From a virus, in IMG/VR virus record IMGVR_UViG_3300013014_001174, positions 14,220 to 78,219 of that record: a stretch of DNA of 64,000 nt; one strand, given 5' to 3'. Position 1 is the stretch's first letter. Every line of letters begins with the position of its first letter. The notes beneath the pieces are model-generated. The model did no database searches, was not told the origin of the DNA, and saw only the letters and a list, made by a program, of their open reading frames with translations. The position numbers were made by a program, and so were the translations under genes. Shown one piece after another: positions 31,004 to 45,800 of this stretch.

Positions 31004-33064
31004 ATGGCAATAGAATTTGTGGATGATGGCGATAAAGGTAAAAAGAAAGATGGTAACACACCAGTATTAGATAACTTCAGTAAAGATTTAATTAAATTAG
31101 CAGAACAAGGAAAACTAGACCCTGTAATTGGTCGACAAAAAGAAATCCTACGTATTGCACAAGTATTATCTAGAAGAAAGAAAAATAACCCCATTATTAT
31201 TGGTGAACCTGGTGCTGGTAAAACAGCGATTGTTGAGGGTCTTGCAATGATGATTCACGCTGGTGAATGTCCTAAAAACTTAGCAGATAAAAGAATTGTA
31301 TCGTTAGATATAAATTCAGTTGTGGCCGGTACAAAATACCGTGGACAATTTGAAGAAAGAATGAAGGTTATTATTGAGGAGTTACAAGCAAGTCCGAATA
31401 TTATAATTTTTATAGATGAAATACATACAATGGTTGGTGCAGGAAATAGTTCTGGGTCACTCGATGCCTCAAATATTTTTAAACCAGCATTATCAAGAGG
31501 TGAAATTCAATGCGTTGGTGCGACAACACTGGATGAATACAGAAAACATTTTGAAAAAGATGGCGCGTTAGAAAGAAGATTTCAAAAAATAATTGTTGAC
31601 CCATCAACAAAAGAAGAGACGTTTGAAATTCTAAAACAAAGTAAAGAAAAATATGAAGAGCATCACAAAGTAAATTACACAGACGAGTCACTTTGGTTAT
31701 GTGTTGAGTTAGCTGATAGATATATTACCGATCGTGAATTTCCAGATAAAGCTTTTGATATTTTAGATGAGGTTGGTTCTCGTATGCAAATTGATATTAA
31801 ATTACCAGAGCATATTGAAAAACTAAAACAAGAAGCTGTAGATATTAAACAAGAAAAAGCGGATGTAATTAAAAAACAAAAATATGAAATGGCCGCAGAA
31901 TTACGTGATCGTGAAAAAAATATTCTACTTAAACTTGATGACGCAAAAAAGAAATTTGAAGAGGAATTAAAAAACAGTAAAAGAGGTATTCCAGAAGATT
32001 TAATTTATGAAGTGGTTTCAAATATGACCAAAATCCCAGTTAATAAAATTAATATCGATGAAAAAAACTCACTTGTTAATTTAGAAGAATCGCTTAATGG
32101 TTATGTAATTGGACAAGAGGAAGCGGTTAAAAAAATATCAAAGGCAATTAGAAGAAATAGAGTTGGTATTAAGGACCCAAATAGACCAATTGGTTCATTT
32201 ATATTTTTAGGATCTACCGGTGTTGGTAAAACGTTTTTAGCTAAAAAGTTAGCAAAAGAAATTTTTGGTAGTGAAGATAGTTTAATTCGTGTTGATATGT
32301 CAGAATATCAAGAAAAACACACAATCTCAAGACTTATTGGGTCACCTCCAGGATATGTTGGTCACGAAGAAGGGGGACAATTAACCGAACAAGTGAAAAA
32401 CAAACCTTATTCTGTGATTTTATTTGATGAAATAGAAAAAGCAAATAAAGACATTTTCTCAACACTACTCCAGATGTTAGATGATGGTCATATGACTGAT
32501 GGTCTTGGTAGAAAAATTAATTTCAAAAACTGTTTAATTATTATGACATCAAACATTGGTGTTAGAAAAGTGCAAGATTTTGGTTCTGGTGTTGGGTTTA
32601 AAACTAATAACAATAGTGATGCGGTACAAGAAGAATATAAAAGAGACGTTTTGAAAAAAGAATTACGTAAGTTTTTTGCCCCAGAATTTTTAAATAGAAT
32701 TGATGATGTTGTTATTTTTAATTCTTTAGTAAAAGAACATATTGATAAAATAGTAAAACTTGAAATAGAAAAATTGATTGGTAGACTTAATTCTATGCGA
32801 TATACGGTCTCTTATGAGGCGTCTGTAATCGATTTAATTGCAAAAGTTGGTTTTGATGAACAATATGGTGCAAGACCAATTAAACGTGCAATCCAGGATA
32901 AAATAGAAGATTTAATTTCTGAAAAGATTTTAACAAATGATGTTGTAGAAGGAAAAGAATATATGTTGTTTGTTAAAGGTGAGGGTGATGATCAAACAAT
33001 AGAAATAGAGGATAGGTCAAAACCAGAACCAAAAAAACGTGGTAGAAAGAAAAAGGAGGATTAA
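31004..33064 (+). CDS. clpC: ClpC-type AAA+ unfoldase lacking the N-terminal Clp-N domain
   Basis: GEPGAGKT and GSTGVGKT Walker A motifs; UVR coil (YEMAAELRD); sequence starts directly at D1. Confidence 0.85.
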   Translation: MAIEFVDDGDKGKKKDGNTPVLDNFSKDLIKLAEQGKLDPVIGRQKEILRIAQVLSRRKKNNPIIIGEPGAGKTAIVEGLAMMIHAGECPKNLADKRIVSLDINSVVAGTKYRGQFEERMKVIIEELQASPNIIIFIDEIHTMVGAGNSSGSLDASNIFKPALSRGEIQCVGATTLDEYRKHFEKDGALERRFQKIIVDPSTKEETFEILKQSKEKYEEHHKVNYTDESLWLCVELADRYITDREFPDKAFDILDEVGSRMQIDIKLPEHIEKLKQEAVDIKQEKADVIKKQKYEMAAELRDREKNILLKLDDAKKKFEEELKNSKRGIPEDLIYEVVSNMTKIPVNKINIDEKNSLVNLEESLNGYVIGQEEAVKKISKAIRRNRVGIKDPNRPIGSFIFLGSTGVGKTFLAKKLAKEIFGSEDSLIRVDMSEYQEKHTISRLIGSPPGYVGHEEGGQLTEQVKNKPYSVILFDEIEKANKDIFSTLLQMLDDGHMTDGLGRKINFKNCLIIMTSNIGVRKVQDFGSGVGFKTNNNSDAVQEEYKRDVLKKELRKFFAPEFLNRIDDVVIFNSLVKEHIDKIVKLEIEKLIGRLNSMRYTVSYEASVIDLIAKVGFDEQYGARPIKRAIQDKIEDLISEKILTNDVVEGKEYMLFVKGEGDDQTIEIEDRSKPEPKKRGRKKKED

Positions 33065-33079
33065 AAACCCTCCTTTTTT
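33051..33079. terminator. bidirectional terminator
   Basis: AAAAGGAGG...CCTCCTTTTT between convergent genes. Confidence 0.7.
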
Positions 33080-33080
33080 A

Positions 33081-33866
33081 TTAGTGTTTAGAATAACCAA
33101 GTTCCTCAATCATCAACTTACCGACTTTAATTCCGTTGTATGTGTCATCCACAACAACATATTCATTTCTTGTGTGGTAATTATAATAACCAATTGATAT
33201 ATTAAAACAAGATAAACCAAAATTTTGATTTAATGGGAAAATATCCGTATAAGGATGTCTATGGTATTTGGTATCACCTGGGAAATGTTCAGTGATAAGA
33301 CGACCACCAACATTAAAAAATTCCGAGTCTCTATTAAACATAGGTTTTGACATAAGATACTCGGAAATCATATTATTTTCCGGAGCATCAAATTGTATTG
33401 CGTAACCAACGTTTTCAAAAAATTTAGGATCCGCATTAAAAGACCCTTTACATCCGGTTTCTTCTGCAACAAAAAAAGCGGCCTTTAAATTTGGTAATTC
33501 TTTTAACAACTCTAAACATCCATATACACCACACTTATCATCACCACCAATACCAGTGGGTTCACCACTGTCATTATAAGCCTTTAAGGACAGTTTAATT
33601 TCTTTTTGAGCATTAGGTAACATCTCTTCTCTAACATTAATAGAATCGATTGTATGTACCGTATCTGTGTGCGCAACGACACAGGGAAAATACTCAATAT
33701 TTTCATCAGTTTGTTTTGTCGCATATATGTTATAAAAACTATCAACATAATATGTGATTTTATTTTCATCTAACCAATTGGTTATAAAATCAATGATTAA
33801 ATCTTCCTGATATGTCTTTGTTGGGATTGATAAAACCTCCTTAAGTAACTCAAAATTTCTTTCCAT
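33081..33866 (-). CDS. M20/M28-family metallopeptidase
   Basis: AHTDTV, GGDDKCG, EETG and C-terminal YHT ligands. Confidence 0.75.
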   Translation of the reverse strand: MERNFELLKEVLSIPTKTYQEDLIIDFITNWLDENKITYYVDSFYNIYATKQTDENIEYFPCVVAHTDTVHTIDSINVREEMLPNAQKEIKLSLKAYNDSGEPTGIGGDDKCGVYGCLELLKELPNLKAAFFVAEETGCKGSFNADPKFFENVGYAIQFDAPENNMISEYLMSKPMFNRDSEFFNVGGRLITEHFPGDTKYHRHPYTDIFPLNQNFGLSCFNISIGYYNYHTRNEYVVVDDTYNGIKVGKLMIEELGYSKH

Positions 33867-33894: not shown

Positions 33895-34953
33895 TTACAA
33901 AAGTTTTTTTAATATTTTTCTAATACTTTCAAATAGTTCTGGATGGTGTAACTGAAGGTTTAAGTCTTCAAGATTATCCACAGATCTTTCTTCACGTTTA
34001 TTACCACCATGTTTAAATATGTCAAAAAATAACTTACTATTTGGTTTAAAATTATGAAACATTATATCCATATTTTTTTCTGGTAATCTTATGTATTTAT
34101 TAAATCCACCAATACTCATAACTTTTTCATACATTTTATTATATTCTTCATAATCAAAATTTCCAAGTTCCTCTTCAACTTCTTCCAACATCTTTTCAAG
34201 ATTTCTGGTTACCTCTTTTTGAAAAGACTCATCCTCATAATCATCACACCAAGAATTATATTCTAGTTCGTTCCAGTCGCCAACACTATTATTTGAATAG
34301 TTTTCTATTAGTAATTTTAACATACCTTTTAAATCCTCGTCTTCAGCATTTAACATTTTATATAAGTTTAATAAAATATTTACACTTGTTTGGAATTTGT
34401 AACCGTGTCGTATTTGCACAATACCAAAATTTATAAATGGGTTGTTAGTTTCACCTACTAACGTTTTTGAAATCGCCCTTTCAATACATTCTTCGTTATA
34501 CCTACCGTATTCGTATATAATGTCATCACATTCGTCATCAAAATTATTTTTTAAAAATTCTGAAATTTTAGCATTATCATTATTATCATTATTAGGGACT
34601 ATTTGTAATGTTGGATTTGTTAGACTTAAAATTTTATTAGCAAGTGTGATATTTTCATCCTTAAACGAATCAATGATATAACCCTCTTTCCAATCTTCGT
34701 CATACCTCCACCGATCAAAATCGTAACTACCATAACTAGAGTTTACGTACCTACTCCAAACCCAAATATCAGTATCATCAGTAACACCAAGAATTTCAAG
34801 AAAATCATCATCATTATCAAAGGTAATTTCAATTTTTGGCGATCTGCCTTTTGAGTATGAAACATCATATATTAGTTTGTCAGGATAAGACCATCTATTA
34901 ACTTCTTCTCCTTTAGCAATTTTTTTTAAAAATTCGTATGTTTCACTTGCCAT
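33895..34953 (-). CDS. hypothetical protein
   Basis: 352-aa ORF. Confidence 0.6.
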   Translation of the reverse strand: MASETYEFLKKIAKGEEVNRWSYPDKLIYDVSYSKGRSPKIEITFDNDDDFLEILGVTDDTDIWVWSRYVNSSYGSYDFDRWRYDEDWKEGYIIDSFKDENITLANKILSLTNPTLQIVPNNDNNDNAKISEFLKNNFDDECDDIIYEYGRYNEECIERAISKTLVGETNNPFINFGIVQIRHGYKFQTSVNILLNLYKMLNAEDEDLKGMLKLLIENYSNNSVGDWNELEYNSWCDDYEDESFQKEVTRNLEKMLEEVEEELGNFDYEEYNKMYEKVMSIGGFNKYIRLPEKNMDIMFHNFKPNSKLFFDIFKHGGNKREERSVDNLEDLNLQLHHPELFESIRKILKKLL

Positions 34954-35018
34954 ATTAAATAAATATAATTATATTTGTATTTATATATAGTTCTTTGATA
35001 ATAGTCATTTAGATATAT

Positions 35019-35426
35019 GGGCCTATATCGGATTTGACGGGCGTTGGTTGAATAATAGAAGCATGTCGGGACTGAATTAATCTCGTTAAAAACTGATTCA
35101 CAAAACAACTGGCAATGTGCTAAACAAAATGGAAACTCTTGGTTTACTAAGAGGTTCTGAAGTTACTGTAGCTTAAGAAGTTTACGGAAACGCGAGCCGG
35201 TTCACATACGCTCAGGAACAGAAGTGACTAAGGTGGACCAAGACTGAACCCGAAATCGAGTCTTCCATTGGTTGTTAATTTACGATGGTGAAGAACAAAT
35301 TAACTTTGTTTTTGGTCAAATTAAAACCAAATATTTTGGGGTATTAGAAAATACCAACCTAAACATGTAGTTGTCTCTTAAACAAGACGAACCGGACGAG
35401 GGAGTCGGAGCCCTCTAGGTCCACCA
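35019..35426 (+). ncRNA. ssrA: tmRNA; tag ORF 35111-35176 (A)GNVLNKMETLGLLRGSEVTVA*
   Basis: GGGCCTA/TAGGTCC-A-CCA acceptor with G3.U; GGATTTGAC 5' motif; ACAACTGGC resume context; upstream TATATTTG promoter. Confidence 0.9.
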
Positions 35427-35429
35427 ATT

Positions 35430-35465
35430 AAAAAACCCACTCTTTTGAAGTGGGTTTTCTTTTTT
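35430..35465. terminator. terminator after tmRNA
   Basis: AAAACCCACT...AGTGGGTTTT. Confidence 0.75.
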
Positions 35466-35479
35466 AGGAGATATCCTAA

Positions 35480-35653
35480 TTACTTAACAGCAGTAGTATC
35501 TTTTACTACAACAGTTGCATTAACTGTAGATTCTACAGCGGTTGCTTCTGGTGTTGCGTCAGCAGTTGCGTTTCCTGTTCCTTTTTCACCACAAGATGTC
35601 ACAAGAGATAATGTCGTGAAAATTGTTAAAGAAATTAAAAATAATTTTTTCAT
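35480..35653 (-). CDS. small lipoprotein (57 aa, absent from ORF track)
   Basis: MKKLFLISLTIFTTLSLVTSC lipobox, then Ala/Thr-rich tail. Confidence 0.7.
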   Translation of the reverse strand: MKKLFLISLTIFTTLSLVTSCGEKGTGNATADATPEATAVESTVNATVVVKDTTAVK

Positions 35654-35773
35654 TTTGAAATGGGTTTAATTAAAGTTTATTATAATAATATATACTACAT
35701 TTTTTATAAAAAGAAAAGGACAACCATAAGTTGCCCTCAAATTTTTTTTTAATAAGATCTTAAATTTTAAAAA

Positions 35774-36650
35774 AAGGTTGAGATTACACCTGTAATTGAG
35801 AATCTTTTGAAGTATTATTGTTTCCCTTCGTATCCACTTTCTTTTGGAAAGTATTTCTCAGTGACGGTCTTTTAGGTTTACCACTCCTTGAGGTTTGAAT
35901 TACTCTCATCTTACTTGACTCTTTCCGAGGTTGCCACCCCAGTTCGTCCTTGCGGGACTAAAGGTTTTTCGGATAATTACACTCAGACTTGGGATCCTTG
36001 TGTGCAATGAACGGCTCATTACTATGTAGTCACCTTTCATCCAAACCTGACAGACACTTTTCCATTATTATTTTAGGTTTTACATCCATATGTAATAAAT
36101 GTTGTGTTGTGGATTATCAAAGTAGTGGTCTGCCAACCGAGCCAAGTCGTCTTTTGAACAACCCGATACTCAACTACTCTGTGAAATGTCCCCATCTCCA
36201 TATTTCTAGACTACTTCGAGATCGAACCCTTGGTAGGGGACGGTCAAGGTTAATAACAGCACCACCTGTACGTTAACATACCTTTCGGTTTTAAGTATCC
36301 TATGATACTGGAATACGCAATAATAAAATTGGATAACTCTATTTTTTGCATAATTCCTACGGGTTATTCCTATTGGTGTTCCCACCTCAACTAGACGACC
36401 CACATCGCCTATTCACTTAACCACTTTCCCTACAGCGTCGCCCTCGGTACTAAAGATTAAACGGTATCCCGCTTGTGTACTTGACCTCACTTTCGTAAGA
36501 CGCAAATAAGTTAACACAACTTACTCACTTTATCCTGGTTTCCCAGTTTATTTTATGGACTATACACGGCCCAATATCTTTATCAGTTTCATTACTTACT
36601 CCTGAACGGATAATCTATTTTTTCAAAGAACGATTTCGGACGTTTCCGAT
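35774..36650 (-). ncRNA. large structured ncRNA, GOLLD-like candidate
   Basis: GC-elevated and free of credible ORFs; several GNRA-capped hairpins on the minus strand; own promoter and boxA-like motif. Confidence 0.65.
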
Positions 36651-36659
36651 TTTGTTTTA

Positions 36660-36691
36660 CAAAGTTAAGACTTTTATTTTAATTTGTCAAG
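36660..36691 (-). promoter_or_regulatory. Bacteroidota-type promoter of the large ncRNA
   Basis: CTTG, 20 nt, TAACTTTG. Confidence 0.7.
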
Positions 36692-36708
36692 TACTTTTTA
36701 AACTTTTT

Positions 36709-36858
36709 TTATTTTTTTTCTATAAAGACATGTTCTGTACCATATTTAGTCGCCATAATATGGGCAAATTCTAAATTTGGTGTAAAAACTTTTTGTCCTT
36801 CATTATTAACATATCCGTATATTTCAACTTCGATTACTTGTGTTTCTTGTTCTGTCAT
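36709..36858 (-). CDS. 49-aa hypothetical protein (absent from ORF track)
   Basis: MTEQETQVIEVEIYGY...; A-rich upstream region. Confidence 0.55.
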   Translation of the reverse strand: MTEQETQVIEVEIYGYVNNEGQKVFTPNLEFAHIMATKYGTEHVFIEKK

Positions 36859-36918
36859 TTTTGTTTGTTTTTAAATACATTACAAACATATAATAAATAT
36901 TTTGTTCTGTCAAGGAAG

Positions 36919-37995
36919 TTAAAGAATTTTTTTCATAATATCTTTAATTCGACTAATTTCTTCGTTTAATTTAAAGTCTTTTTCTTCTAAATTAATTTTA
37001 GGTTTCTTAATTTCCGAAATTTCTTTGTCGTTACTAAAAAGTTTTTCAAATTTGTTCATAAACGCTTTAAAATTTTCTAAATCAAACTTAGTGTCACCTC
37101 CTGTTTTACTCTCAACTTTAACTTCAAATTTTTCGGCAATTGTTTTAATCTCACTTCTATTAAAATCATTTTTACCTAATTCTTTTTCAAAATAATCTAA
37201 ACATTCATCTAAAGTGTTAAATGTTTTATCATTTAGTCCATCAATAAAACTTTGCGCTTCGGTGTTTGAAGTTGTTTTATTTGTGGTTATTAAATCTTTA
37301 TTCTTGATTACAAGAGCAGCTAAAACAATTTTAGAAAAATTATCTTTAACACCTAATGTTCCCAATTTTTCTAAAACAGATTTAATTATTGACTGTTCAC
37401 CAGAAGAAAATGCTGTGTAAAATATTTTTTTAATTTTTGGTACTGTTTGATTTGGTGTTTGTTGTTGTGAATCTTGAGTTTCACTATCTTCAGTTGAAGA
37501 GTACTTATCGTCCGGTTTTGTATTTCTAACACCAACGTGAATGTGATCATAATGGTTAGTAACATTCCAACCAACTTGGTATCTATAATTTCCAACATTA
37601 AAATTAATCCACTTACCATTACCTTTTTGAAGTAACTTATCTGGCATTTTATCTTCCGATATCCAACCACGTTTTACAAACTCTTCTCTAAGTTTCTTCC
37701 AACCGTCGTCTCCTTTTTTACCACGACAAGGTAAATCAATACCATATGAATCCTTTGAGCCATCCCAGTGGTCAGACCTATTACCAGATGCTGTTAGTCT
37801 TCTACTTCTTTTTTGTGATCCGGCATTGAATCCCAAATCTTTTAACCAGGATGCCATTTGTAACGCCCTTTCTGCAGATCCCGCCCAGTCACCATTTATC
37901 CCACCACCAAGACAAACTTTACCTTGATCAAGACATTTAGGATATGCTGAACCAACAGCAAAACCATATGTATTTGTGTTTTCAAATAAATTCAT
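36919..37995 (-). CDS. putative Zn-dependent cell-wall peptidase (M15-like)
   Basis: SDH...GIDL...HYDHIHV ligand pattern; C-terminal LNEEISRIKDIM motif. Confidence 0.55.
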   Translation of the reverse strand: MNLFENTNTYGFAVGSAYPKCLDQGKVCLGGGINGDWAGSAERALQMASWLKDLGFNAGSQKRSRRLTASGNRSDHWDGSKDSYGIDLPCRGKKGDDGWKKLREEFVKRGWISEDKMPDKLLQKGNGKWINFNVGNYRYQVGWNVTNHYDHIHVGVRNTKPDDKYSSTEDSETQDSQQQTPNQTVPKIKKIFYTAFSSGEQSIIKSVLEKLGTLGVKDNFSKIVLAALVIKNKDLITTNKTTSNTEAQSFIDGLNDKTFNTLDECLDYFEKELGKNDFNRSEIKTIAEKFEVKVESKTGGDTKFDLENFKAFMNKFEKLFSNDKEISEIKKPKINLEEKDFKLNEEISRIKDIMKKIL

Positions 37996-38010
37996 ATGTA
38001 TATAAATACA

Positions 38011-38478
38011 TCAATGAATCAAAAACCATTCTGGAATACTTCTATTTTTCCAATTAGCAAAAGATTTTTTTGCATCTATATAATAATTTCTATATGAGTC
38101 AATAACAGATTCCACTTTATATTCGTCTGGCATTGCCTTTGCTGGCTGTGTAAAATCTTTATCTGGTATATTTGGTTTATTAATTAAACACCATTCTATT
38201 ATATCCTGGGATTTATGTCTTTTACCATATCTATATGTGTATTCTTTACATAATTCCAAACCTAAATCACATAAATAAAGATAATTGGATAATGATTCTC
38301 TGGACCAAATAGCACAAGGGTGATTTTTATGTGATAATTTATATGGAGCTTCAGATCCAATAATCCAATGCGCACCACATAAAAGTTGTGCTGTTTCAAG
38401 TATCATCTTAACAACGTGTTTATCACAATGATACTGTGCACATTTTTGGGTATCAAAATCTAAAAAAAATATATTCAT
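38011..38478 (-). CDS. pyrimidine-dimer DNA glycosylase/endonuclease V-like protein
   Basis: MNIFFLD..HCDKHVVKMILE..HKNHPC..YTYRYGK.H. Confidence 0.75.
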   Translation of the reverse strand: MNIFFLDFDTQKCAQYHCDKHVVKMILETAQLLCGAHWIIGSEAPYKLSHKNHPCAIWSRESLSNYLYLCDLGLELCKEYTYRYGKRHKSQDIIEWCLINKPNIPDKDFTQPAKAMPDEYKVESVIDSYRNYYIDAKKSFANWKNRSIPEWFLIH

Positions 38479-38510
38479 AAAACAAAGATATGAAATATTT
38501 TTTAATCAAC

Positions 38511-38537
38511 AAAAAAACCCCACCTAAAAGATGGGGT
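38511..38537 (-). terminator. intrinsic terminator
   Basis: ACCCCATCT/AGGTGGGGT with T-run. Confidence 0.65.
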
Positions 38538-38558
38538 CAACAAAAAGTTATAATAAAC

Positions 38559-38726
38559 TTATTTTTTAGCAATTACAGACCAAATAGCACCTGCTAATGT
38601 CATAATACCGCCAGTGATTTCAGTAACAACACTTTCGTCTGCCCATCCTTTCATAACAACAATACCACCAACAAATGTTAAAGCATGTCTAACAATTCCT
38701 AATACTTGTTCTTTTGTTAATTTCAT
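38559..38726 (-). CDS. holin-like two-TM protein (55 aa, absent from ORF track)
   Basis: MKLTKEQVLGIVRHALTFVGG...GAIWSVIAKK. Confidence 0.65.
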   Translation of the reverse strand: MKLTKEQVLGIVRHALTFVGGIVVMKGWADESVVTEITGGIMTLAGAIWSVIAKK

Positions 38727-38786
38727 AAAATTTTTTTTTATTGTTTATTTTATACTATATAAATATATTTATTTAATAAAAAAGTT

Positions 38787-40028
38787 ATGAAACAAAATAT
38801 CAATGAAGAATTAAATTATATAAAATATCTTTTAGGTTATCAAAAAGGTGTTGTAATTTCCGAACAAACAACACCAGCGTCTGATACACCAATGCAACCA
38901 CAAGCACAAGGTACACCAGTATCAGAACCAACTCAAGGTGGTGATGGATGTATTCCATTAACAATTAGTGGTAATTTTAACCCTAAAAAATCAGATTCCA
39001 CAGAATATTTAACAAACATAATTAGCCAACTTGACGCTCAAATTAAAAGTAAACCAGAATTTCAAGGTGGATCGGTAACAAGTATAAGAATTATTGGCGG
39101 TGCTAGTAATGTGGATAATGGTATTAAATCTGATTTTACATTAAATAATGATTACACACCAAGTGGTACAACACCGAAACAAACTAAAGAGTTTCAAAAT
39201 AATATGAGTTATGCTCAAGCAAGAATTGATGCTTCTAAACAGCCAATATTAGATGAATTAAAAAAAGTTGGTTTAACTGTTAGTGTTGAACCCACAACCG
39301 AAACTCACGTTATTGACACTGGGGGTACAAGTGACTCAAAACGTAATTCAGGCACCTACCCAAATCCTGGTCAAGTTGTTATAATCCAGATGACTATTTG
39401 TCCGGTAAAAGATGGTGCTGGACGTGAAGATTTTGATAAATTACCATATCTGAAACCGCAATTAATACCAACAACTTCAGGAGAAATAGTAAACAGAATT
39501 GAAAATTTAATAGAATGTTATGAAAATTCTGAAATAAGGATTTTTTATGGTGATCCAAAAAAAGGTCATTGGTGTCGTAAAGCTTTATATAATGTTTATG
39601 CTAACGGTATACAATTGAAAAGGGCTGATGGTAAAGATTATGCTTCTTTAAATAATGTTGGGGATAAGTTTGATAATGCGGAAATTATTAATGGGGAGAG
39701 GAGAAAAGAATGTGGTAGAGGAAATAGATGTGGTAGAAGTAATACATTTACTTTAGATAGAATTACAAATGAATCTTTCTTTAATAAAGATGTTTTATAC
39801 AAACATAATGGTGGGTTAGTTATTACTGCAGAATGTACTGATAAAGGTCAAGGATCATATGATGGTAATTCAGACTGTCATAATGACGTTGGTAATATTT
39901 CTTTCAAAATAAAAGGACTTGGTGAAGAAGTTAAGGAAGCTTCCGATACACCAAATATGTTCAATGTACCAAAAGAAATTGGAAATTTTGCCGCTTGTAA
40001 AACATTTAAACTTCAGGCAGCTAAATAA
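38787..40028 (+). CDS. hypothetical protein with INEELNYIK motif
   Basis: 413-aa ORF. Confidence 0.6.
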   Translation: MKQNINEELNYIKYLLGYQKGVVISEQTTPASDTPMQPQAQGTPVSEPTQGGDGCIPLTISGNFNPKKSDSTEYLTNIISQLDAQIKSKPEFQGGSVTSIRIIGGASNVDNGIKSDFTLNNDYTPSGTTPKQTKEFQNNMSYAQARIDASKQPILDELKKVGLTVSVEPTTETHVIDTGGTSDSKRNSGTYPNPGQVVIIQMTICPVKDGAGREDFDKLPYLKPQLIPTTSGEIVNRIENLIECYENSEIRIFYGDPKKGHWCRKALYNVYANGIQLKRADGKDYASLNNVGDKFDNAEIINGERRKECGRGNRCGRSNTFTLDRITNESFFNKDVLYKHNGGLVITAECTDKGQGSYDGNSDCHNDVGNISFKIKGLGEEVKEASDTPNMFNVPKEIGNFAACKTFKLQAAK

Positions 40029-40033
40029 TCAAG

Positions 40034-40615
40034 TTACTTGTTATAATGTAACTTGATTATTGCTTTATCAATTTCAGAAAATTTATTTGTATTACAACCA
40101 CCTTGGTAAAAAACACTTTCTGGATACTTCCAAGAATCATTCATTAAACCTAGAGATTGTGTAATTTCTTCACGTAATACACTTTTTAATTCAATACCAC
40201 AAAGTCTTTCATTTATGAAAATATGACTTGTGTAGATTCTTGATTGATATACAACTGTCCCAACAAAACCCAAAAATTTACCATTTATAGTAATGTTAGC
40301 CCTTTTTTTATATTCAGAAAAATCACAAAAATAAATAAAAGTATTAGCCTCTTTTTTATCCTTAGCAATTGAAATTGTAATTGGGTCAATAAGATTGTTT
40401 AATTCATTAATGATAATTTTTGTATACTCTTTTATTGAATCATTGTCTTCAAAATCAAAAAATATCTTTACATCGTTTTTCCATTTTACAAAATTATGAC
40501 TTGAGTCCCCGTATTCAGATTTTCCGGCGATTTCGTTATAATAATGAACCACAGAATCTTGACTAAAAGTTGTGGTTACAAAAAATAAAAATAGGGTTGT
40601 TATAATTGTTTTCAT
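40034..40615 (-). CDS. secreted DUF2927-like protein
   Basis: signal peptide; LREEITQSLGL.NDS..YP.SVFYQ. Confidence 0.65.
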   Translation of the reverse strand: MKTIITTLFLFFVTTTFSQDSVVHYYNEIAGKSEYGDSSHNFVKWKNDVKIFFDFEDNDSIKEYTKIIINELNNLIDPITISIAKDKKEANTFIYFCDFSEYKKRANITINGKFLGFVGTVVYQSRIYTSHIFINERLCGIELKSVLREEITQSLGLMNDSWKYPESVFYQGGCNTNKFSEIDKAIIKLHYNK

Positions 40616-40654
40616 ACAACAAAGATATAAAGTTTTTTTTAATATACAAAATTA

Positions 40655-40861
40655 TTATTCTTTGATTTTAAACCAACGTTTGAATAATTTTTCCCAAACA
40701 TCCATTGCCGGATTAATAGCAACGAAAAAACCAATAGCACCAACAATAAAATTACCAATAGAAGATTCTGACTCCAAATAGTATTTGAATAGCCACAAGC
40801 CAACCCAAACAATGAAGAATGAAAGGATTGAGGACAATAAGAATAAAAGAAACTTTTTCAT
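40655..40861 (-). CDS. small membrane protein
   Basis: two hydrophobic segments. Confidence 0.55.
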   Translation of the reverse strand: MKKFLLFLLSSILSFFIVWVGLWLFKYYLESESSIGNFIVGAIGFFVAINPAMDVWEKLFKRWFKIKE

Positions 40862-40880
40862 AATATAAATTTAAAATTTG

Positions 40881-40963
40881 ATGTCAGGGTGGGAGTCGAA
40901 CCCACAATGAGCAACCATCTTTAACAGATGGGATTAGCACCGGTGCCTTTTACACTCCTGACA
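40881..40963 (-). tRNA. atypical tRNA-like element (central loop TGTTAAA)
   Basis: TGTCAGG/CCTGACA acceptor; GTGGG-TTCGACT-CCCAC T-arm; irregular D and anticodon regions. Confidence 0.45.
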
Positions 40964-41126
40964 AACACGACTCTTCAGCATTCTACTCCCAGCTCCGAGG
41001 AATTGTATCTAACTTAGCCCGTTACTCACCGCTGTACAGGTACTGAAGTTCATCGTCTTTTTCTTACCGTAAAGATAACTAAAATAAAGAACATAAACAA
41101 TAATCCAATCATAATTTTATTTTTTT

Positions 41127-41201
41127 TGGCGGTCCCACCGGGAATCGAACCCGGCATACTGCCGTGACAGGGCAGCGTTATAGCCGATTAACTACAGGAC
41201 C
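41127..41201 (-). tRNA. tRNA-Asp(GTC)
   Basis: canonical cloverleaf with encoded CCA. Confidence 0.92.
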
Positions 41202-41415
41202 AAAGTTTCCCCACCTGAGATTAATGGTGAGTAGATATTCACAGTTTTTCTATTTGAAAACCCAACGTGTCTTACCACTTAAAAGTCAATCCTTACTTGG
41301 GGGAGAGGAGGATTTTCCAAACCGATTCCCAATGAGTACCACATTTACGCGATAGTACCAGCTTCGTTAAGTTTTGTATGAACTTAAAAACATCTTGAGT
41401 ATCTCTCACTCATTG

Positions 41416-41487
41416 TAGTCCCACCGGGAGTCGAACCCGACTTTTCAGGATGAAAACCTGACGACCTAACCGATAGTCGATGGGACC
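41416..41487 (-). tRNA. tRNA-Glu(TTC)
   Basis: canonical cloverleaf. Confidence 0.9.
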
Positions 41488-41498
41488 ATTTTGTTTTA

Positions 41499-41780
41499 TT
41501 ACAAACCTAACATTTCACCAACTTTTTTGAAATGTTTTTCAATCTTATTCAAAGCAGCCGTAGCCTTTTGTTTGGTCTTGAAGTACACGTAGAACTGACC
41601 ACTTTCAGAATCAAACTCACCTTCAATCTTTAAGACATCTTGTACAAAACTTTCAAACTCATACGCATCTTCCCAATTACGGATTGTGTTTTTGTTTGGG
41701 AATCCTGTCAAACAATAATCGGATCCTTCAATTTTTGTAATTTTTAAACCTACGGTTTTAATTGTCTCTGTGTTTGTCAT
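41499..41780 (-). CDS. hypothetical protein
   Basis: ORF behind host-type promoter at 41801-41832. Confidence 0.6.
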   Translation of the reverse strand: MTNTETIKTVGLKITKIEGSDYCLTGFPNKNTIRNWEDAYEFESFVQDVLKIEGEFDSESGQFYVYFKTKQKATAALNKIEKHFKKVGEMLGL

Positions 41781-42133
41781 AGTTATTTATTTTTGTTCTA
41801 CAAAGATATGTAATCTATTTTAATCTACCAAATCTTTTTTTAAATTTTTTTTGTGGGACCCGCTCCCCACTCTGAACTTGTACTTCGTTCTTTTAAGCGT
41901 TTTTTTTAAGTTCTCCAACCAGCCAGTATTCGTGTTAACTCTAATCATTTTAACTTTTGATGACTCTGAAGTACCTGATAAAATTTCTCTCATCATTTAT
42001 TCGTATTAATTGTTTATTTTTGAGCGGAAGACTTCCGCAAAATAAAAATCAACATTGCTATCAGGATTTAAACGTCGCTCAGAATACTTACTGACGCCCA
42101 CTGGTTGGGTACAGTGACTAGTTGATCTTTTTG

Positions 42134-42214
42134 TACTGATGGTTGGATTCGAACCAACGTTTTAAACTTACCGCTACAGGCATAGACGATATAAGCGTCC
42201 ACTGGTACATCAGC
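42134..42214 (-). tRNA. D-armless tRNA-Ile(TAT)-like RNA
   Basis: GCTGATG/CATCAGT acceptor; GGACG-CTTATAT-CGTCT arm; canonical T-arm; no D-arm; long extra region. Confidence 0.5.
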
Positions 42215-42293
42215 GTAATCGTCAGTCTCTCCTGACCGTCACCCCTAACCCACAGGTATTACCCGTATCGTAGTAAAGCTTGGTTTGCTATAG

Positions 42294-42365
42294 TAGCGTG
42301 TCGTGGATTTGAACCACCCCGTAGACGTTATGAGCGTCCCATGCAACCAATTACACCTTCACGCG
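42294..42365 (-). tRNA. tRNA-Met(CAT), somewhat degenerate
   Basis: GGACG-CTCATAA-CGTCT; C1 mismatch; overlaps end of HNH gene. Confidence 0.7.
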
Positions 42366-42921
42366 ATATATCTATTTTTCCGTTATCAAACTCCCAATGA
42401 TGATTAGGACATAAACCGATTAAATTATCAATTGAGTTTATGTTTCTTATTAATTCATCACCACCAAAAGACGAAACTGAGTTTATATGACAAACCTCAA
42501 CATGATTAGAATATCCACATATTAAACATTCTTTTTTTGTTGTGTGTTTATTAAAAACATAATGTGCGTGTTTTCTAACTACAGCCCTAAATTTATAATA
42601 AACTCCGTGTTTTTCATATAGTTCTTTTTTTGTCATATCTAACAAAAATTCAAACTTTTCTTTTTTTTCTTTTTTAATACCTTCAACTACTTTTTTTTCT
42701 CTTTTCAGTTCTCTAACTTTATTGTTATAAGTCGCAGAACAAGAACTATTACAAAAAGTTTTTTTTCTTACGTGTCTTGGTTTTTCACTTTCTTTAACCT
42801 CAATTATTTTACCACAATTTTTACAAATCTTTGGGTTATCATAATAATTTTTCAAAGAACGCTCTTGTAAAATTTTCTTTGTTGTTTGTGCTCCTTTCTG
42901 ATATTTGTTAAGTTTTTCCAT
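42328..42921 (-). CDS. HNH homing endonuclease
   Basis: CLICGY..VEVCHI...N.IDNLIGLCPNHH.EFD; N-terminal CxxC...FCxxxC. Confidence 0.85.
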   Translation of the reverse strand: MEKLNKYQKGAQTTKKILQERSLKNYYDNPKICKNCGKIIEVKESEKPRHVRKKTFCNSSCSATYNNKVRELKREKKVVEGIKKEKKEKFEFLLDMTKKELYEKHGVYYKFRAVVRKHAHYVFNKHTTKKECLICGYSNHVEVCHINSVSSFGGDELIRNINSIDNLIGLCPNHHWEFDNGKIDISREGVIGCMGRS

Positions 42922-43004
42922 ATATATAAATATATATTAAAGCTCAAAAATACCTATCACTACAAACTTTTTTTAGAGAAATCAACTTTATCTCCCGCGA
43001 TATG

Positions 43005-43110
43005 TAGTCAAAGAAGGATTCGAACCTTCACGGAATAAGTGTAATAGTTACCTTATTCCAAGGAGTTTTGAGTATTATCTCCCAGCGTCTGCCAATTCCG
43101 CCACTTGACT
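43005..43110 (-). tRNA. tRNA-Leu(CAA)-like with expanded anticodon loop and long variable arm
   Basis: Leu-type D arm GGCGGAATTGGCAGACGC; GGAG-ATAATACTCAAAA-CTCC; canonical T-arm. Confidence 0.6.
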
Positions 43111-43238
43111 ATTTAGACTTGTAATTTAGTAGTTGACTCAAACTCTCGTTTCACCATCTTGAGTCAACAGGTTAATGCACTTTACGAGTTTCCCGTTTCT
43201 TACAACCACTTGTCTTTAACAAAGATATGTATTTTATT

Positions 43239-43355
43239 TCAATCTACCAAATCTTTTTTAAACTTTTTTTTTCTTGTGTATTTCTTTTTATTACGATACA
43301 CATTTGGCCTTGTTGCCATCATAATCTCCTGGTATGTAATCTCAATTGTTTTCAT
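43239..43355 (-). CDS. 38-aa basic peptide, ArfA-like (absent from ORF track)
   Basis: MKTIEITYQEIMMATRPNVYRNKKKYTRKKKFKKDLVD. Confidence 0.5.
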   Translation of the reverse strand: MKTIEITYQEIMMATRPNVYRNKKKYTRKKKFKKDLVD

Positions 43356-43647
43356 CGTTATACAATCTTTGAACGTGACTAATTATTTTATTTATATCTT
43401 CTTTTGTTTGGAAACCTAAAACATCATTTGTTAATATTGTATCATAACAAATTTTCCAATTACCCTTCCTTCCTTTAATTATTGCAACCTCCCAGGTTTT
43501 ATCGTCTGTATAAGACGAATATCTGGTACTATAAGGATGTTTATATCTTACAACTGAAAGTCCGTATCCACCAGGAAAAAATATCAATCCGTGAACACCA
43601 TCTCCAGATGTGTGTGGTTTAAATTCTATATCATCAAATGTTATCAT
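43342..43647 (-). CDS. hypothetical phage protein
   Basis: 101-aa ORF with own TACTTTTG promoter. Confidence 0.6.
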   Translation of the reverse strand: MITFDDIEFKPHTSGDGVHGLIFFPGGYGLSVVRYKHPYSTRYSSYTDDKTWEVAIIKGRKGNWKICYDTILTNDVLGFQTKEDINKIISHVQRLYNDENN

Positions 43648-43694
43648 AAGACAAAAGTATAAATAATTTTTTAATTATCAAAATTTCAAAGAAC

Positions 43695-43824
43695 AAAAAA
43701 ACCCACCTCTTTTGGAGATGGGTTTCAAAATTTATTATGCATTAATTTATCATACCATCTCCTTATAGGAACAATCCTCAGCTATCGCCAATCCGCCTAA
43801 TAATATGATATGTAAATTTTTCAT
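43695..43824 (-). promoter_or_regulatory. attenuator 2: 24-aa leader (43750-43824) plus terminator (43695-43725)
   Basis: MKNLHIILLGGLAIAEDCSYKEMV*; leader GGAGATGG complementary to terminator arm CCATCTCC. Confidence 0.65.
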
Positions 43825-43825
43825 T

Positions 43826-44362
43826 TTAGTATCTATTATTTCTACTTTTATCGGATTTTCCGTAATGGTGTCCCGATTGGTATTTATCATAACCTTTTCT
43901 TTTAAACCAAGCGGCGTCTCTAAGAGTATTACTTGCTAAAGCGTAAACCCCTAAAGCTGCAGCAATTCCCCCACTTATAAACATTGCTGCTGGAATAACT
44001 GCCAATCCAGCACCAACTGAACTATAAGTAATAATTTTATCAAGAATATTTCTTATTTTGTATTCAGTATCACCCATTTCTTCTTCATCATCTTCCGTTA
44101 ATACAGACTCCAGAGAATCCTTAATCATAGATTGTAAAGATTTGATACCGTTACTTTCTATAAAATCACGTAACATATCTTGTTCTTCAGAACTCAATCG
44201 TTCTGTCGCTTTTTTACTACTTTGTTCTAATTCCATTTTTGAAACGTCCACATCTGATTCCATATCTTCAGATTGTGAAATCCATTCTTCTTCATTTTCT
44301 TTAATCACTCGTCTAACAATTCTTGCTAAATCTGATTCTGTTAATCTAATAATTCTTTTCAT
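43826..44362 (-). CDS. LTESDL-motif protein with hydrophobic segment
   Basis: MKRIIRLTESDLARIVRRVIKE. Confidence 0.65.
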   Translation of the reverse strand: MKRIIRLTESDLARIVRRVIKENEEEWISQSEDMESDVDVSKMELEQSSKKATERLSSEEQDMLRDFIESNGIKSLQSMIKDSLESVLTEDDEEEMGDTEYKIRNILDKIITYSSVGAGLAVIPAAMFISGGIAAALGVYALASNTLRDAAWFKRKGYDKYQSGHHYGKSDKSRNNRY

Positions 44363-44416
44363 ATCAACATTTTAATATAAATATAACAGTATACAAAAAA
44401 AAACAATAAAGTTTTG

Positions 44417-44496
44417 TACCCCCGGAGAGACTCGAACTCTCACACCCTTCGGCACTGGTGTCTAAAACCAGCATGTCTGCATTCCATCACAGGGGC
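44417..44496 (-). tRNA. tRNA-Leu(TAG)
   Basis: type II cloverleaf. Confidence 0.85.
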
Positions 44497-44505
44497 ATTT
44501 ATTTG

Positions 44506-44577
44506 AGGACCTAATTGGAATCAAACCAATCTAACCGGTTTTGCAGACCGGCACCTAAATCTCTCGGCCATAGGTCC
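44506..44577 (-). tRNA. tRNA-Cys(GCA)
   Basis: cloverleaf with U discriminator. Confidence 0.85.
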
Positions 44578-44582
44578 TTATA

Positions 44583-45038
44583 TTAACGGCAGTGATGATC
44601 TGCCGCTTTTGTTGCAATTTGATTGTCAGGTTTAATATTTGTTTTATAACCCAACGACGTTGCCCACCCAACAACAGGTTGAACCAATTTTGAACTGAAA
44701 TGTTTTTCTTGACTATTATAATCTAAATCAATCTCAACTATCACCTTCACTTTCTGGGTTAACCATTCGGCAACCTCAATTGAATAATCGGCCTCATTCC
44801 AAAGACGTGTCCATTTGTCTTTAATTTTTTTCACTTTCTGTTTATGTAGTATGTAGTGAACACCACGATTTCCATACCGGTATGCAATAACCGTAACATA
44901 AATTGTACTTCTTCTGTGATTTTGTGAATCTGTACCAATGTGGACCTCAACCCAGGGACATTCTTTCAGAACATCTAAGGTATGTTTTACCACATCAGGA
45001 ATTGTTTCACCGTTAACCGTTCTAAATACTCTGTTCAT
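44583..45038 (-). CDS. RNase H-like YkuK (DUF458) family protein
   Basis: IGTDSQ, RLWNEA..S, ATKAADH motifs. Confidence 0.75.
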   Translation of the reverse strand: MNRVFRTVNGETIPDVVKHTLDVLKECPWVEVHIGTDSQNHRRSTIYVTVIAYRYGNRGVHYILHKQKVKKIKDKWTRLWNEADYSIEVAEWLTQKVKVIVEIDLDYNSQEKHFSSKLVQPVVGWATSLGYKTNIKPDNQIATKAADHHCR

Positions 45039-45055
45039 TATTTCTATTTATTTTG

Positions 45056-45128
45056 TGGACAGGGAGGGTGTCGAACCCCCGACTCCAGGATCTTCAATCC
45101 TGAGCTCTACCAACTGAGCTACCTGTCC
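45056..45128 (-). tRNA. tRNA-Phe(GAA)
   Basis: canonical cloverleaf. Confidence 0.9.
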
Positions 45129-45132
45129 AGTG

Positions 45133-45213
45133 TGGAAGTGGTAGGGGTCGAACCTACACGCCTTTCGGACTTGATTTACAGTCAAGCGAGCCAGCCAAAT
45201 GCTCAACACTTCC
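45133..45213 (-). tRNA. tRNA-Tyr(GTA)
   Basis: type II cloverleaf. Confidence 0.88.
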
Positions 45214-45223
45214 TTATTATTTG

Positions 45224-45297
45224 TACACTCTACAGGGGTCGAACCTGTGACCTTTTGCGTATCAGACAAACGCTACTACCATCTGAGCTAAGAGTGT
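45224..45297 (-). tRNA. tRNA-Ile(GAT)
   Basis: canonical cloverleaf. Confidence 0.9.
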
Positions 45298-45367
45298 GTT
45301 TTAGTTTCTTGGAACGAAGATAACCATTTTTTGGTAATTATCGTTCTTTTTTACTAAATTTTTTTTG

Positions 45368-45438
45368 TTCCCCCGGACGGTAACGCTCCGACTTCTTTCC
45401 GTTAAAAGCGGAAAGCTTCACTTTAAAGCTTCGAGGGA
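45368..45438 (-). tRNA. tRNA-Lys(TTT) with atypical D and T loops
   Basis: TTCCG-CTTTTAA-CGGAA; T-loop AGCGTTA. Confidence 0.65.
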
Positions 45439-45497
45439 TTCTGTTTGTCATACTTGTCACTTTCCATAACACTTGTTTTTATTTGTTTATTTATTAG

Positions 45498-45568
45498 TCG
45501 AATGTGTACGAATCGAACGTCTCCCGAATGTCCCAAACATCCTGTGCAACCATTACACCACACACTCG
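45498..45568 (-). tRNA. tRNA-Pro(TGG)
   Basis: cloverleaf with C1-G72. Confidence 0.8.
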
Positions 45569-45583
45569 TTATTTTTTTTTTTG

Positions 45584-45668
45584 CTACGGGGGGAGGGATC
45601 GAACCTCCAATGGTAATTTACCTCCAGGGTCAAAACCTGGTGACTTTGCCTAATTCGTCTACCCCGCA
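45584..45668 (-). tRNA. tRNA-Gln(TTG) with long variable region
   Basis: U1-A72; CCAGG-TTTTGAC-CCTGG; extra GGTAAATTACC hairpin. Confidence 0.8.
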
Positions 45669-45676
45669 ATTTACAG

Positions 45677-45760
45677 AGGAGAGATGAGGTGTCGATCCCC
45701 ATACCTTTCAGTACCAACCGTTTTCAAGACGGTGTCACAAGCCGTTGTGATTATCTCTCC
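45677..45760 (-). tRNA. tRNA-Ser(TGA)
   Basis: type II cloverleaf. Confidence 0.82.
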
Positions 45761-45800
45761 TTTTATGAAACCAATATGTCAAAGAACTTTTTCTTTTTTG

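Follow-up and report, generated by a model that had tools for sequence, protein, structure and literature searches.

A complete GOLLD RNA gene with a boxA-type leader in an uncultured phage that probably infects Bacteroidota

The DNA analyzed here, called the window throughout, is a stretch of 64,000 nucleotides (nt) covering positions 14,220 to 78,219 of IMG/VR virus record IMGVR_UViG_3300013014_001174, a 78-kb phage fragment estimated to be 24% complete. On its minus strand, at 36655-35775, lies a segment of about 880 nt that we take, with high confidence, for a full-length gene of a GOLLD RNA. The phage is large and uncultured, and its hosts are probably Bacteroidota. GOLLD is, to our knowledge, among the largest and most elaborate RNAs of bacteria and phages, and while its structure has been solved, we know of no function for it; its reference description is said to be that of Weinberg et al. 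2009. An earlier note, made from the letters of the window and its open reading frames (ORFs), had proposed at this place an independently transcribed structured RNA and had guessed the GOLLD family from size and context. Around the gene are an ATPase and a peptidase gene, a transfer-messenger RNA (tmRNA) gene 350 nt away, a small lipoprotein-like ORF and an array of transfer RNA (tRNA) genes with HNH-like genes among them, 12 tRNAs lying 4.4-10 kb from GOLLD. From promoter to terminator, the features of the GOLLD gene are as follows.

36660..36690, minus strand: predicted GOLLD promoter of the Bacteroidota type (-33 TTG, -7 TAnnTTTG), with TTGACA (36690-36685), 17 nt, and TAACTTTG (36667-36660)
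36636..36649, minus strand: leader hairpin UCGGA-AACG-UCCGA, 4 nt before the boxA word, in a boxB-like position
36620..36631, minus strand: boxA word GTTCTTTGAAAA (as RNA, GUUCUUUGAAAA) in the untranslated leader, about 24 nt past the inferred start
36182..36572, minus strand: GOLLD 5' domain, about 390 nt with about 19 predicted helices, matched end to end by an nhmmer profile in 138 loci
35775..36181, minus strand: GOLLD 3' domain, the Rfam RF02032 match
36056..36123, minus strand: variable A/U-rich linker, unpaired in the Rfam alignment, differing in length and sequence among relatives
35891..36048, minus strand: pseudoknot or long-range helix of AGGUUUGGAU (36048-36039) with AUUCAAACCU (35900-35891), given in square brackets in the Rfam consensus
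35946..35958, minus strand: hairpin GUCC-CGCAA-GGAC, with a self-complementary GC at 35953-35952
35768..35791, minus strand: 3'-terminal hairpin AGGUG-UAAUCU-CAACCU followed by U7, with a covarying stem and a fixed loop
35706..35738, minus strand: terminator-like hairpin GAGGGCAAC-UUA-UGGUUGUCCUU (35738-35716) with a U-rich tail, 37 nt past the U7

The family guess is borne out by Infernal, which aligns 36181-35775 (-) to the Rfam GOLLD model RF02032 at 315.6 bits against a cut-off of 150 (E 1.6e-89), over model positions 1-416 of 416 and thus without truncation. The same match is recovered when the whole 78-kb record is searched, and the cut-off is also passed by 12 of 12 related loci tested. 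RF02032 models only the conserved 3' half of GOLLD, whose body totals about 800-880 nt with a less conserved 5' domain of about 400 nt. In the Rfam scan that the earlier note had proposed (GOLLD, ROOL, RNase P, introns), GOLLD alone passes threshold: no second family appears in the GOLLD region at E <= 0.1, the next matches at relaxed thresholds across 35600-36900 reach only E 0.45 and 0.66, and the ROOL covariance model (RF03087) gives no match in that interval even at E <= 1. As GOLLD is the only family at better than E 0.45 in 35600-36900, the ROOL, RNase P and intron models are excluded.

That the stretch is some other entity, whether a new RNA class, ROOL, RNase P, an intron or a protein-coding gene with a nonstandard code, has nothing found in its support, and we assign it next to no probability: only GOLLD passes any Rfam threshold, the distance between the two GOLLD halves is constant across more than 100 loci, and the internal ORFs (95 and 65 amino acids) are not conserved, being interrupted by stops or frameshifts in several close relatives. 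The stretch does not code for protein. As the earlier note observed, it belongs to the longest non-coding part of the window, 34954-36918 being the longest run without an ORF of at least 100 amino acids; this run contains the tmRNA gene, a small ORF and the GOLLD RNA. The elevated GC content is likewise real (0.39-0.42 inside versus 0.23-0.31 in the flanks), and the minimum free energy of the 886-nt RNA lies at z = -4.5 relative to shuffles. The window RNA is a complete and genuine GOLLD gene, a new member of a family already known.

Comparison with relatives extends this identification to both halves of the RNA. Scans of IMG/VR for the fixed 3' loop and then for a fixed word of the 5' domain gathered about 200 loci, and a profile of the RNA body (nhmmer) gave 138 matches beginning at its 5' end; once sequences with more than 93% identity were taken out, 81 full-length relatives of very uniform length remained. 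Apparent inserts of about 300 nt in some relatives proved to lie upstream of the RNA body and not in the linker. The RNAalifold consensus of the 81 relatives has 238 pairs with 94.3% canonical cells, a proportion that drops to 39-44% when the 3' partners are slid by 1-3 columns as a control. Compensatory changes, altering both sides of a pair, are found in 173 of the 238 pairs, and a smaller run with 22 sequences had them in 115 of 178; in the 5' domain (36572-36182) they touch nearly every predicted helix. The earlier note had named covariation as a check and its absence as the outcome that would speak against a structured RNA; covariation is abundant in both halves. Together with the RF02032 match, this confirms the family.

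The three hairpins that had been picked out by eye are all present and differ in how their loops behave. In CUGG-GAAA-CCAG (36546-36535), the GAAA loop (36542-36539) is invariant in 81 of 81 relatives, and the helix around it (36550-36543/36538-36531) has compensatory changes in three of six pairs. The stem of CUUAC-GAAA-GUGAG (36499-36486) covaries and its loop (36494-36491) is free to vary, with GAAA in only 18 of 81, and ACC-GAAA-GGU (36289-36280) has GAAA at 36286-36283 in 64 of 81. Further loops of the 5' domain are GGAA (36382-36379) and GGGA (36192-36189).

The pseudoknot helix of the 3' domain has 10 pairs, nine of them with compensatory changes, and 97% canonical cells. The linker (36123-36056), in which no tRNA is inserted, is closed by a covarying 7-base-pair helix (36134-36128 with 36055-36049) and corresponds to the disordered, inward-pointing linker of the solved env-38 GOLLD (PMC12286853). 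The 3'-terminal hairpin (35791-35775) has the fixed loop GUAAUCUCA and a stem that covaries across the 81 relatives, with variants AGG/CCU, ACG/CGU, AAC/GUU and AGC/GCU around a constant UGUAAUCUCA. The RNA end described in the earlier note, GGUGUAAUCUCAACC (35790-35776) with U7 (35774-35768), is present and is the most conserved GOLLD element, and the U run after this last hairpin is retained even where a tRNA follows.

The two GOLLDs solved by cryo-electron microscopy are protein-free, closed dihedral cages (PMC12286853, PMC12990946), a 14-mer for env-38 (PMC12286853) and a 10-mer for Streptococcus agalactiae (PMC12990946), in which the 5' domains make up the caps and the 3' domains the rings, with the variable linker directed into the cage (PMC12286853). 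Kretsch et al. 2025 (PMC12286853) gave a GC/CG switch in loop L21a as evidence for an intermolecular kissing loop, bridge B8. The loop of the window hairpin 35958-35946 reads CGCAA in 59 of 81 relatives and (G)UCGA in 14 of 81, and the numbering agrees: the loop dinucleotide falls at Rfam model positions 238-239, compared with residues 656-657 in the solved RNA, where the 3' domain begins at 421. By this comparison the hairpin is likely the L21a kissing loop that bridges copies in the cage, and the GC/CG switch makes it likely that the window RNA assembles into a cage like those of the solved GOLLDs.

Transcription of this RNA appears to be arranged as a unit of its own. The promoter that had been proposed, TTGACA-17-TAACTTTG, is found in its place, and its second element follows TAnnTTTG, the -7 box of Bacteroidota promoters; from its position, transcription would start near 36655. 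The window holds five TTG-N20-TAnnTTTG sites, all of them intergenic and aimed at genes, facing tmRNA, GOLLD, the small gene upstream of GOLLD and, twice, the tRNA region. In the tRNA region, near-identical promoters of the form TTGGTAGATT.AAATA...TACATATCTTTG lie at 41801-41831 (-) and 43220-43250 (-), each before a short ORF. The leader hairpin takes the forms UCGG/CCGA or UCAGG/CCUGA in relatives, so the stem is preserved through paired changes, and the 30 nt preceding boxA in 73 relatives fold at a mean of -3.8 kcal/mol versus -1.2 for shuffles. Two ends are predicted for the transcripts, the U run behind the final GOLLD hairpin and the terminator 35738-35716, whose place is occupied in relatives by hairpin-plus-T-run sequences that differ from it. 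The primary transcript probably stops at the terminator, and its length would then be about 945 nt. With a promoter and a terminator flanking the gene, independent transcription, as first proposed, is plausible.

Directly upstream lies a small gene that is new here and that we call p49.

36709..36858, minus strand: p49, a conserved 49-amino-acid gene directly upstream of GOLLD, with a promoter at 36913-36883

The p49 ORF ends 18 nt before the GOLLD promoter. Homologues are found upstream in 42 of 123 distinct GOLLD loci, as 37 distinct sequences of 43-58 amino acids that are 36-92% identical, while more distant flanking genes are not common to the p49-GOLLD loci. The reverse search gave the same picture: 21 of 22 viral loci fetched by the p49 protein alone have a full GOLLD 135-195 nt downstream, and since the 22nd stops at a contig edge, all 21 informative loci carry GOLLD. 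The linkage between p49 and GOLLD is real. The family comprises 170 clusters in a large protein collection, all of them unnamed, and no relative of p49 was found in Pfam, PHROGs, PDB sequences, Foldseek or the Atlas. An AlphaFold2 model shows a small beta-beta-alpha-beta unit (predicted local distance difference test score 77.6), and because the protein is acidic, it is not an obvious RNA binder.

Such tight linkage in many phages, and the lack of any terminator-like site on the minus strand between the small gene and GOLLD, could also mean that GOLLD is made mainly by read-through from the p49 promoter, as the untranslated tail of an mRNA. We consider this improbable, as a full TTG-N18-22-TAnnTTTG promoter between the p49 gene and boxA is kept in 36 of 36 related loci, several of which have two, and the small gene is absent from about two thirds of related GOLLD loci, which nevertheless keep a promoter or a tRNA upstream of GOLLD. 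A promoter belonging to GOLLD itself is the reading we retain.

What distinguishes the unit most is its leader. The boxA-like motif that had been noticed there is present and identical to the boxA of ribosomal RNA (rRNA) operons in the likely host phylum. Among 22 relatives the word is nearly invariant while its flanks vary freely. The core GTTCTTT[GA]A is present, in sense, in the 150 nt preceding 113 of 119 distinct GOLLD bodies and in antisense before none, compared with 23 of 2360 control pieces from the same loci (about 1%). The 16S leader and the 16S-23S spacer are the two classical positions of boxA, and for comparison we used 16S loci from genomes of the phylum of a metagenome-assembled genome (MAG) titled 'uncultured Bacteroidetes bacterium'. 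In this sampled phylum, 11 of 17 leaders have GTTCTTTGA 78-140 nt ahead of 16S, and 16 of 19 operons have it in the 16S-23S spacer. Three 16S leaders (L245-L247) contain exactly GTTCTTTGAAAA, four have GTTCTTTGATAA, the variant of the word found before the phage tmRNA, and many spacers have GTTCTTTGACAT, the variant that precedes GOLLDs following a tRNA. A control sample of Patescibacteria had a similar word in only 1 of 16 leaders. We conclude from these sequence matches that the leader word corresponds to the boxA of the sampled phylum.

Within the window, the 9-mer GTTCTTTGA has five copies versus 1.09 expected, a number reached in 0 of 100 shuffles, and all five lie in the stable-RNA region, within 34990-45787, in the sense of the adjacent RNA genes. 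Exact sense words in the tRNA region are at 43686-43694 (-) and 45779-45787 (-), one directly after a terminator hairpin and the other between tRNA-Thr and the next tRNA.

Near-universal retention of the word is also what a structural element would show, and GUUCUUUGA could instead belong to the GOLLD fold, as a closing helix with CAAGGAG (35890-35884), or be a ribonuclease processing site and not a Nus site. RNAalifold with the 81 sequences does pair 36630-36624 with 35890-35884 in seven pairs at 89% canonical cells. Yet the word is invariant while its partner drifts without compensation (CAAGGAG, UAAAGAG, CAAGAAG, UAAGGAU), only one pair having a double change; the same word precedes tmRNA and rRNA genes, which have no such partner; and the two domains of the solved structure are described as separate, with few contacts (PMC12286853). 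The proposed helix was dropped for want of real covariation, and we judge a structural or processing role of the word unlikely relative to a boxA function.

A boxA function of the word has a ready interpretation, as the identity with the boxA of the phylum suggests that GOLLD is probably transcribed by a termination-resistant complex of the rRNA (Nus/boxA) type. Host RNA polymerase would start at the Bacteroidota-type promoter and transcribe the small hairpin and GUUCUUUGAAAA. NusB-S10 would then bind boxA and, with NusA and NusG, turn the polymerase into an rRNA-type anti-termination complex, by the mechanism reviewed in PMC10931766. Such a complex would block Rho on the long untranslated RNA and may aid co-transcriptional folding. 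T7 has boxA after its early promoters, a precedent for phage use of the element (PMC3709561). The 78-kb record, about a quarter of the genome, contains neither a phage NusG nor a phage NusB, and a literature search returned no paper linking GOLLD to boxA or anti-termination, or to p49.

The same type of leader would be used by the neighboring tmRNA gene, which is convergent with GOLLD and comprises the following features.

35019-35426 (unit 34947..35426), plus strand: phage tmRNA gene, convergent (Rfam tmRNA, 78.1 bits versus a cut-off of 47)
34947-34977, plus strand: tmRNA promoter with -7 box TATATTTG
34990-35001, plus strand: tmRNA boxA word GTTCTTTGATAA in a short leader

The order promoter, boxA and tmRNA is found in four of four related phage loci with a tmRNA, and the five phage tmRNA genes (window and four relatives) share a -7 box, six bases, GTTCTTTGA(T/A)AAT and 2-18 bases before the tmRNA 5' end. 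Among 29 bacterial tmRNA genes from the sampled phylum, about 8 also have GTTCTTTG just upstream. The window tmRNA is not called by ARAGORN, and its tag frame as read has about 21 residues ending in VTVA rather than ALAA. The GOLLD-tmRNA neighborhood is seen again in four relatives. In the cultured Mycobacterium phage PegLeg (L301, 54000-56700), a tmRNA, several tRNAs and a GOLLD 3' domain lie within 2 kb, so that GOLLD-tmRNA proximity is not confined to the Bacteroidota phage clade. In one related phage (L075:3940-4517, minus strand), a group I intron match of 94.9 bits adjoins or overlaps the 3' portion of the GOLLD-adjacent tmRNA gene, which may be intron interrupted.

Other neighbors are noted for their position. 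A ClpB/ClpC-like double AAA+ ATPase (686 amino acids) and an M20-like peptidase (261 amino acids) lie at 31004-33866, within 2 kb of the tmRNA gene. Between GOLLD and tmRNA, at 35480-35653 (-), is a 57-amino-acid ORF with a signal-peptide- or lipobox-like start (…LVTSC), conserved in five related loci. Sequences resembling tRNA and missed by ARAGORN lie at 42100-42360 (-) and 43005-43110 (-); the former includes an element with a CAU-like anticodon at about 42360-42290, just after an HNH-like ORF, and another near 42214-42134, and the latter is a 106-nt Rfam tRNA match that possibly holds an intron.

The window GOLLD is distantly similar to GOLLDs of uncultured phages of 635-642 kb, and the host phylum is probably Bacteroidota, judging from the promoter and boxA sequences. 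An attempt to reach the host through bacterial genomes was given up: a 21-base pattern from the 5' domain matched eight contigs, of which five were chance matches and three were true GOLLDs on short MAG contigs of discordant phyla. The contigs with this type of GOLLD (L126, which is G001 contig C155 of 2092 nt and also has a tmRNA, L125 and L130) come from bins labeled Bacteroidetes, Saccharibacteria and Methylocystis.

Several points weigh against parts of this interpretation and limit how far it reaches. The promoter, start, end and expression of the GOLLD gene are predictions only, and with 5 TTG-N20-TAnnTTTG sites versus 2.8 expected, their number alone carries no significance. Of the five GTTCTTTGA copies, one falls within an HNH-like ORF, possibly by chance. 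A search of the 1 kb upstream of the GOLLD 3' domain turned up no boxA word in phages of Acinetobacter, Caulobacter, Mycobacterium and Vibrio, whose GOLLD is embedded in tRNA arrays. We had considered that a host-type boxA might precede every GOLLD and rejected this idea because these four, cultured phages from other phyla, had none; boxA thus characterizes the window's clade and not GOLLDs in general. The Bacteroidota host is drawn only from the promoter type and boxA, and the GOLLD-bearing MAG contigs are probably mis-binned phage fragments. As to structure, the helices of the 5' domain are given without one-by-one placement on the published P1-P13, the published GOLLD alignment covering the 3' domain only, and the copy number of the cage is not predictable, solved GOLLDs being 10-mers or 14-mers.

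With these points in mind, we suggest, tentatively and with more doubt than belief, that in Bacteroidota phages a 'stable-RNA regulon' comprises GOLLD, tmRNA and parts of the tRNA array and is run through boxA by the host's machinery for rRNA anti-termination, and that GOLLD has a dedicated acidic partner, p49, of 43-58 amino acids and always followed by GOLLD. If this is true, the GOLLD cage would have in p49 its first known protein associate, be it a partner, a cargo or a regulator. Traveling with GOLLD in about a third of related phages, this gene is a concrete candidate for functional study.

The window copy itself adds little to the GOLLD family. Its value lies in its surroundings: a defined transcription unit with an rRNA-type boxA common to tmRNA makes high, termination-proof production like that of rRNA probable, and the leader ties GOLLD to the translation apparatus. 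We make the weak guess that the cage serves translation during infection, for instance by holding or protecting tRNA or cargo related to the ribosome, because GOLLD is encoded alongside the tRNAs and the tmRNA of the phage and regulated with them. The boxA leader and the linked small protein gene make the question of GOLLD function more testable.

Set beside known systems, the window RNA differs from GOLLD in none of the features that define the family. With env-38 GOLLD it shares a complete 3' domain that includes the pseudoknot, the constant 3' loop and the variable linker, together with a 5' domain of about 400 nt and a size of about 800-880 nt; it likewise lies in a phage near tRNA genes and shows the GC/CG kissing-loop switch. 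Whereas env-38 lies directly behind tRNA-Met, the window GOLLD has its own predicted promoter and boxA leader, and its linker is without a tRNA. The Streptococcus agalactiae GOLLD belongs to the same family and has the conserved 3' domain, but it lacks P9, P11a-c and P21b and forms 10-mers (PMC12990946). The window RNA, like the Rfam consensus, has both hairpins at the P21 position and therefore looks closer to the env-38 type than to that of S. agalactiae.

ROOL (RF03087) is likewise a large, ornate, cage-forming phage RNA found near tRNAs, while its sequence and fold are unrelated to those of GOLLD. Some sequences in the ROOL alignment supplement (PMC12286853) start with UGUUCUUUGAUAUG or UUCUUUGAAAAAU at their 5' edge, and the boxA word may precede some ROOL genes too.

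A close parallel to the leader is found in the leaders and spacers of rrn operons, with their order boxB-boxA-boxC (PMC10931766); common to both are a promoter, a small hairpin, boxA and then a long untranslated structured RNA, and some 16S leaders in the sampled phylum have exactly the same 12-nt boxA word. The rrn anti-termination complex consists of NusA, NusB, NusE/S10, NusG, SuhB and S4 (PMC10931766), and the cargo is rRNA there and a phage cage RNA here. As with the nut sites of lambda and the boxA of T7 early promoters (PMC3709561), a phage appears to have put a host boxA behind host-type promoters. Those of lambda and T7 serve mRNA operons, while the boxA in the window precedes stable RNAs, GOLLD and tmRNA, with no N-like protein implied; the boxA leader would thus represent known machinery with a new cargo.

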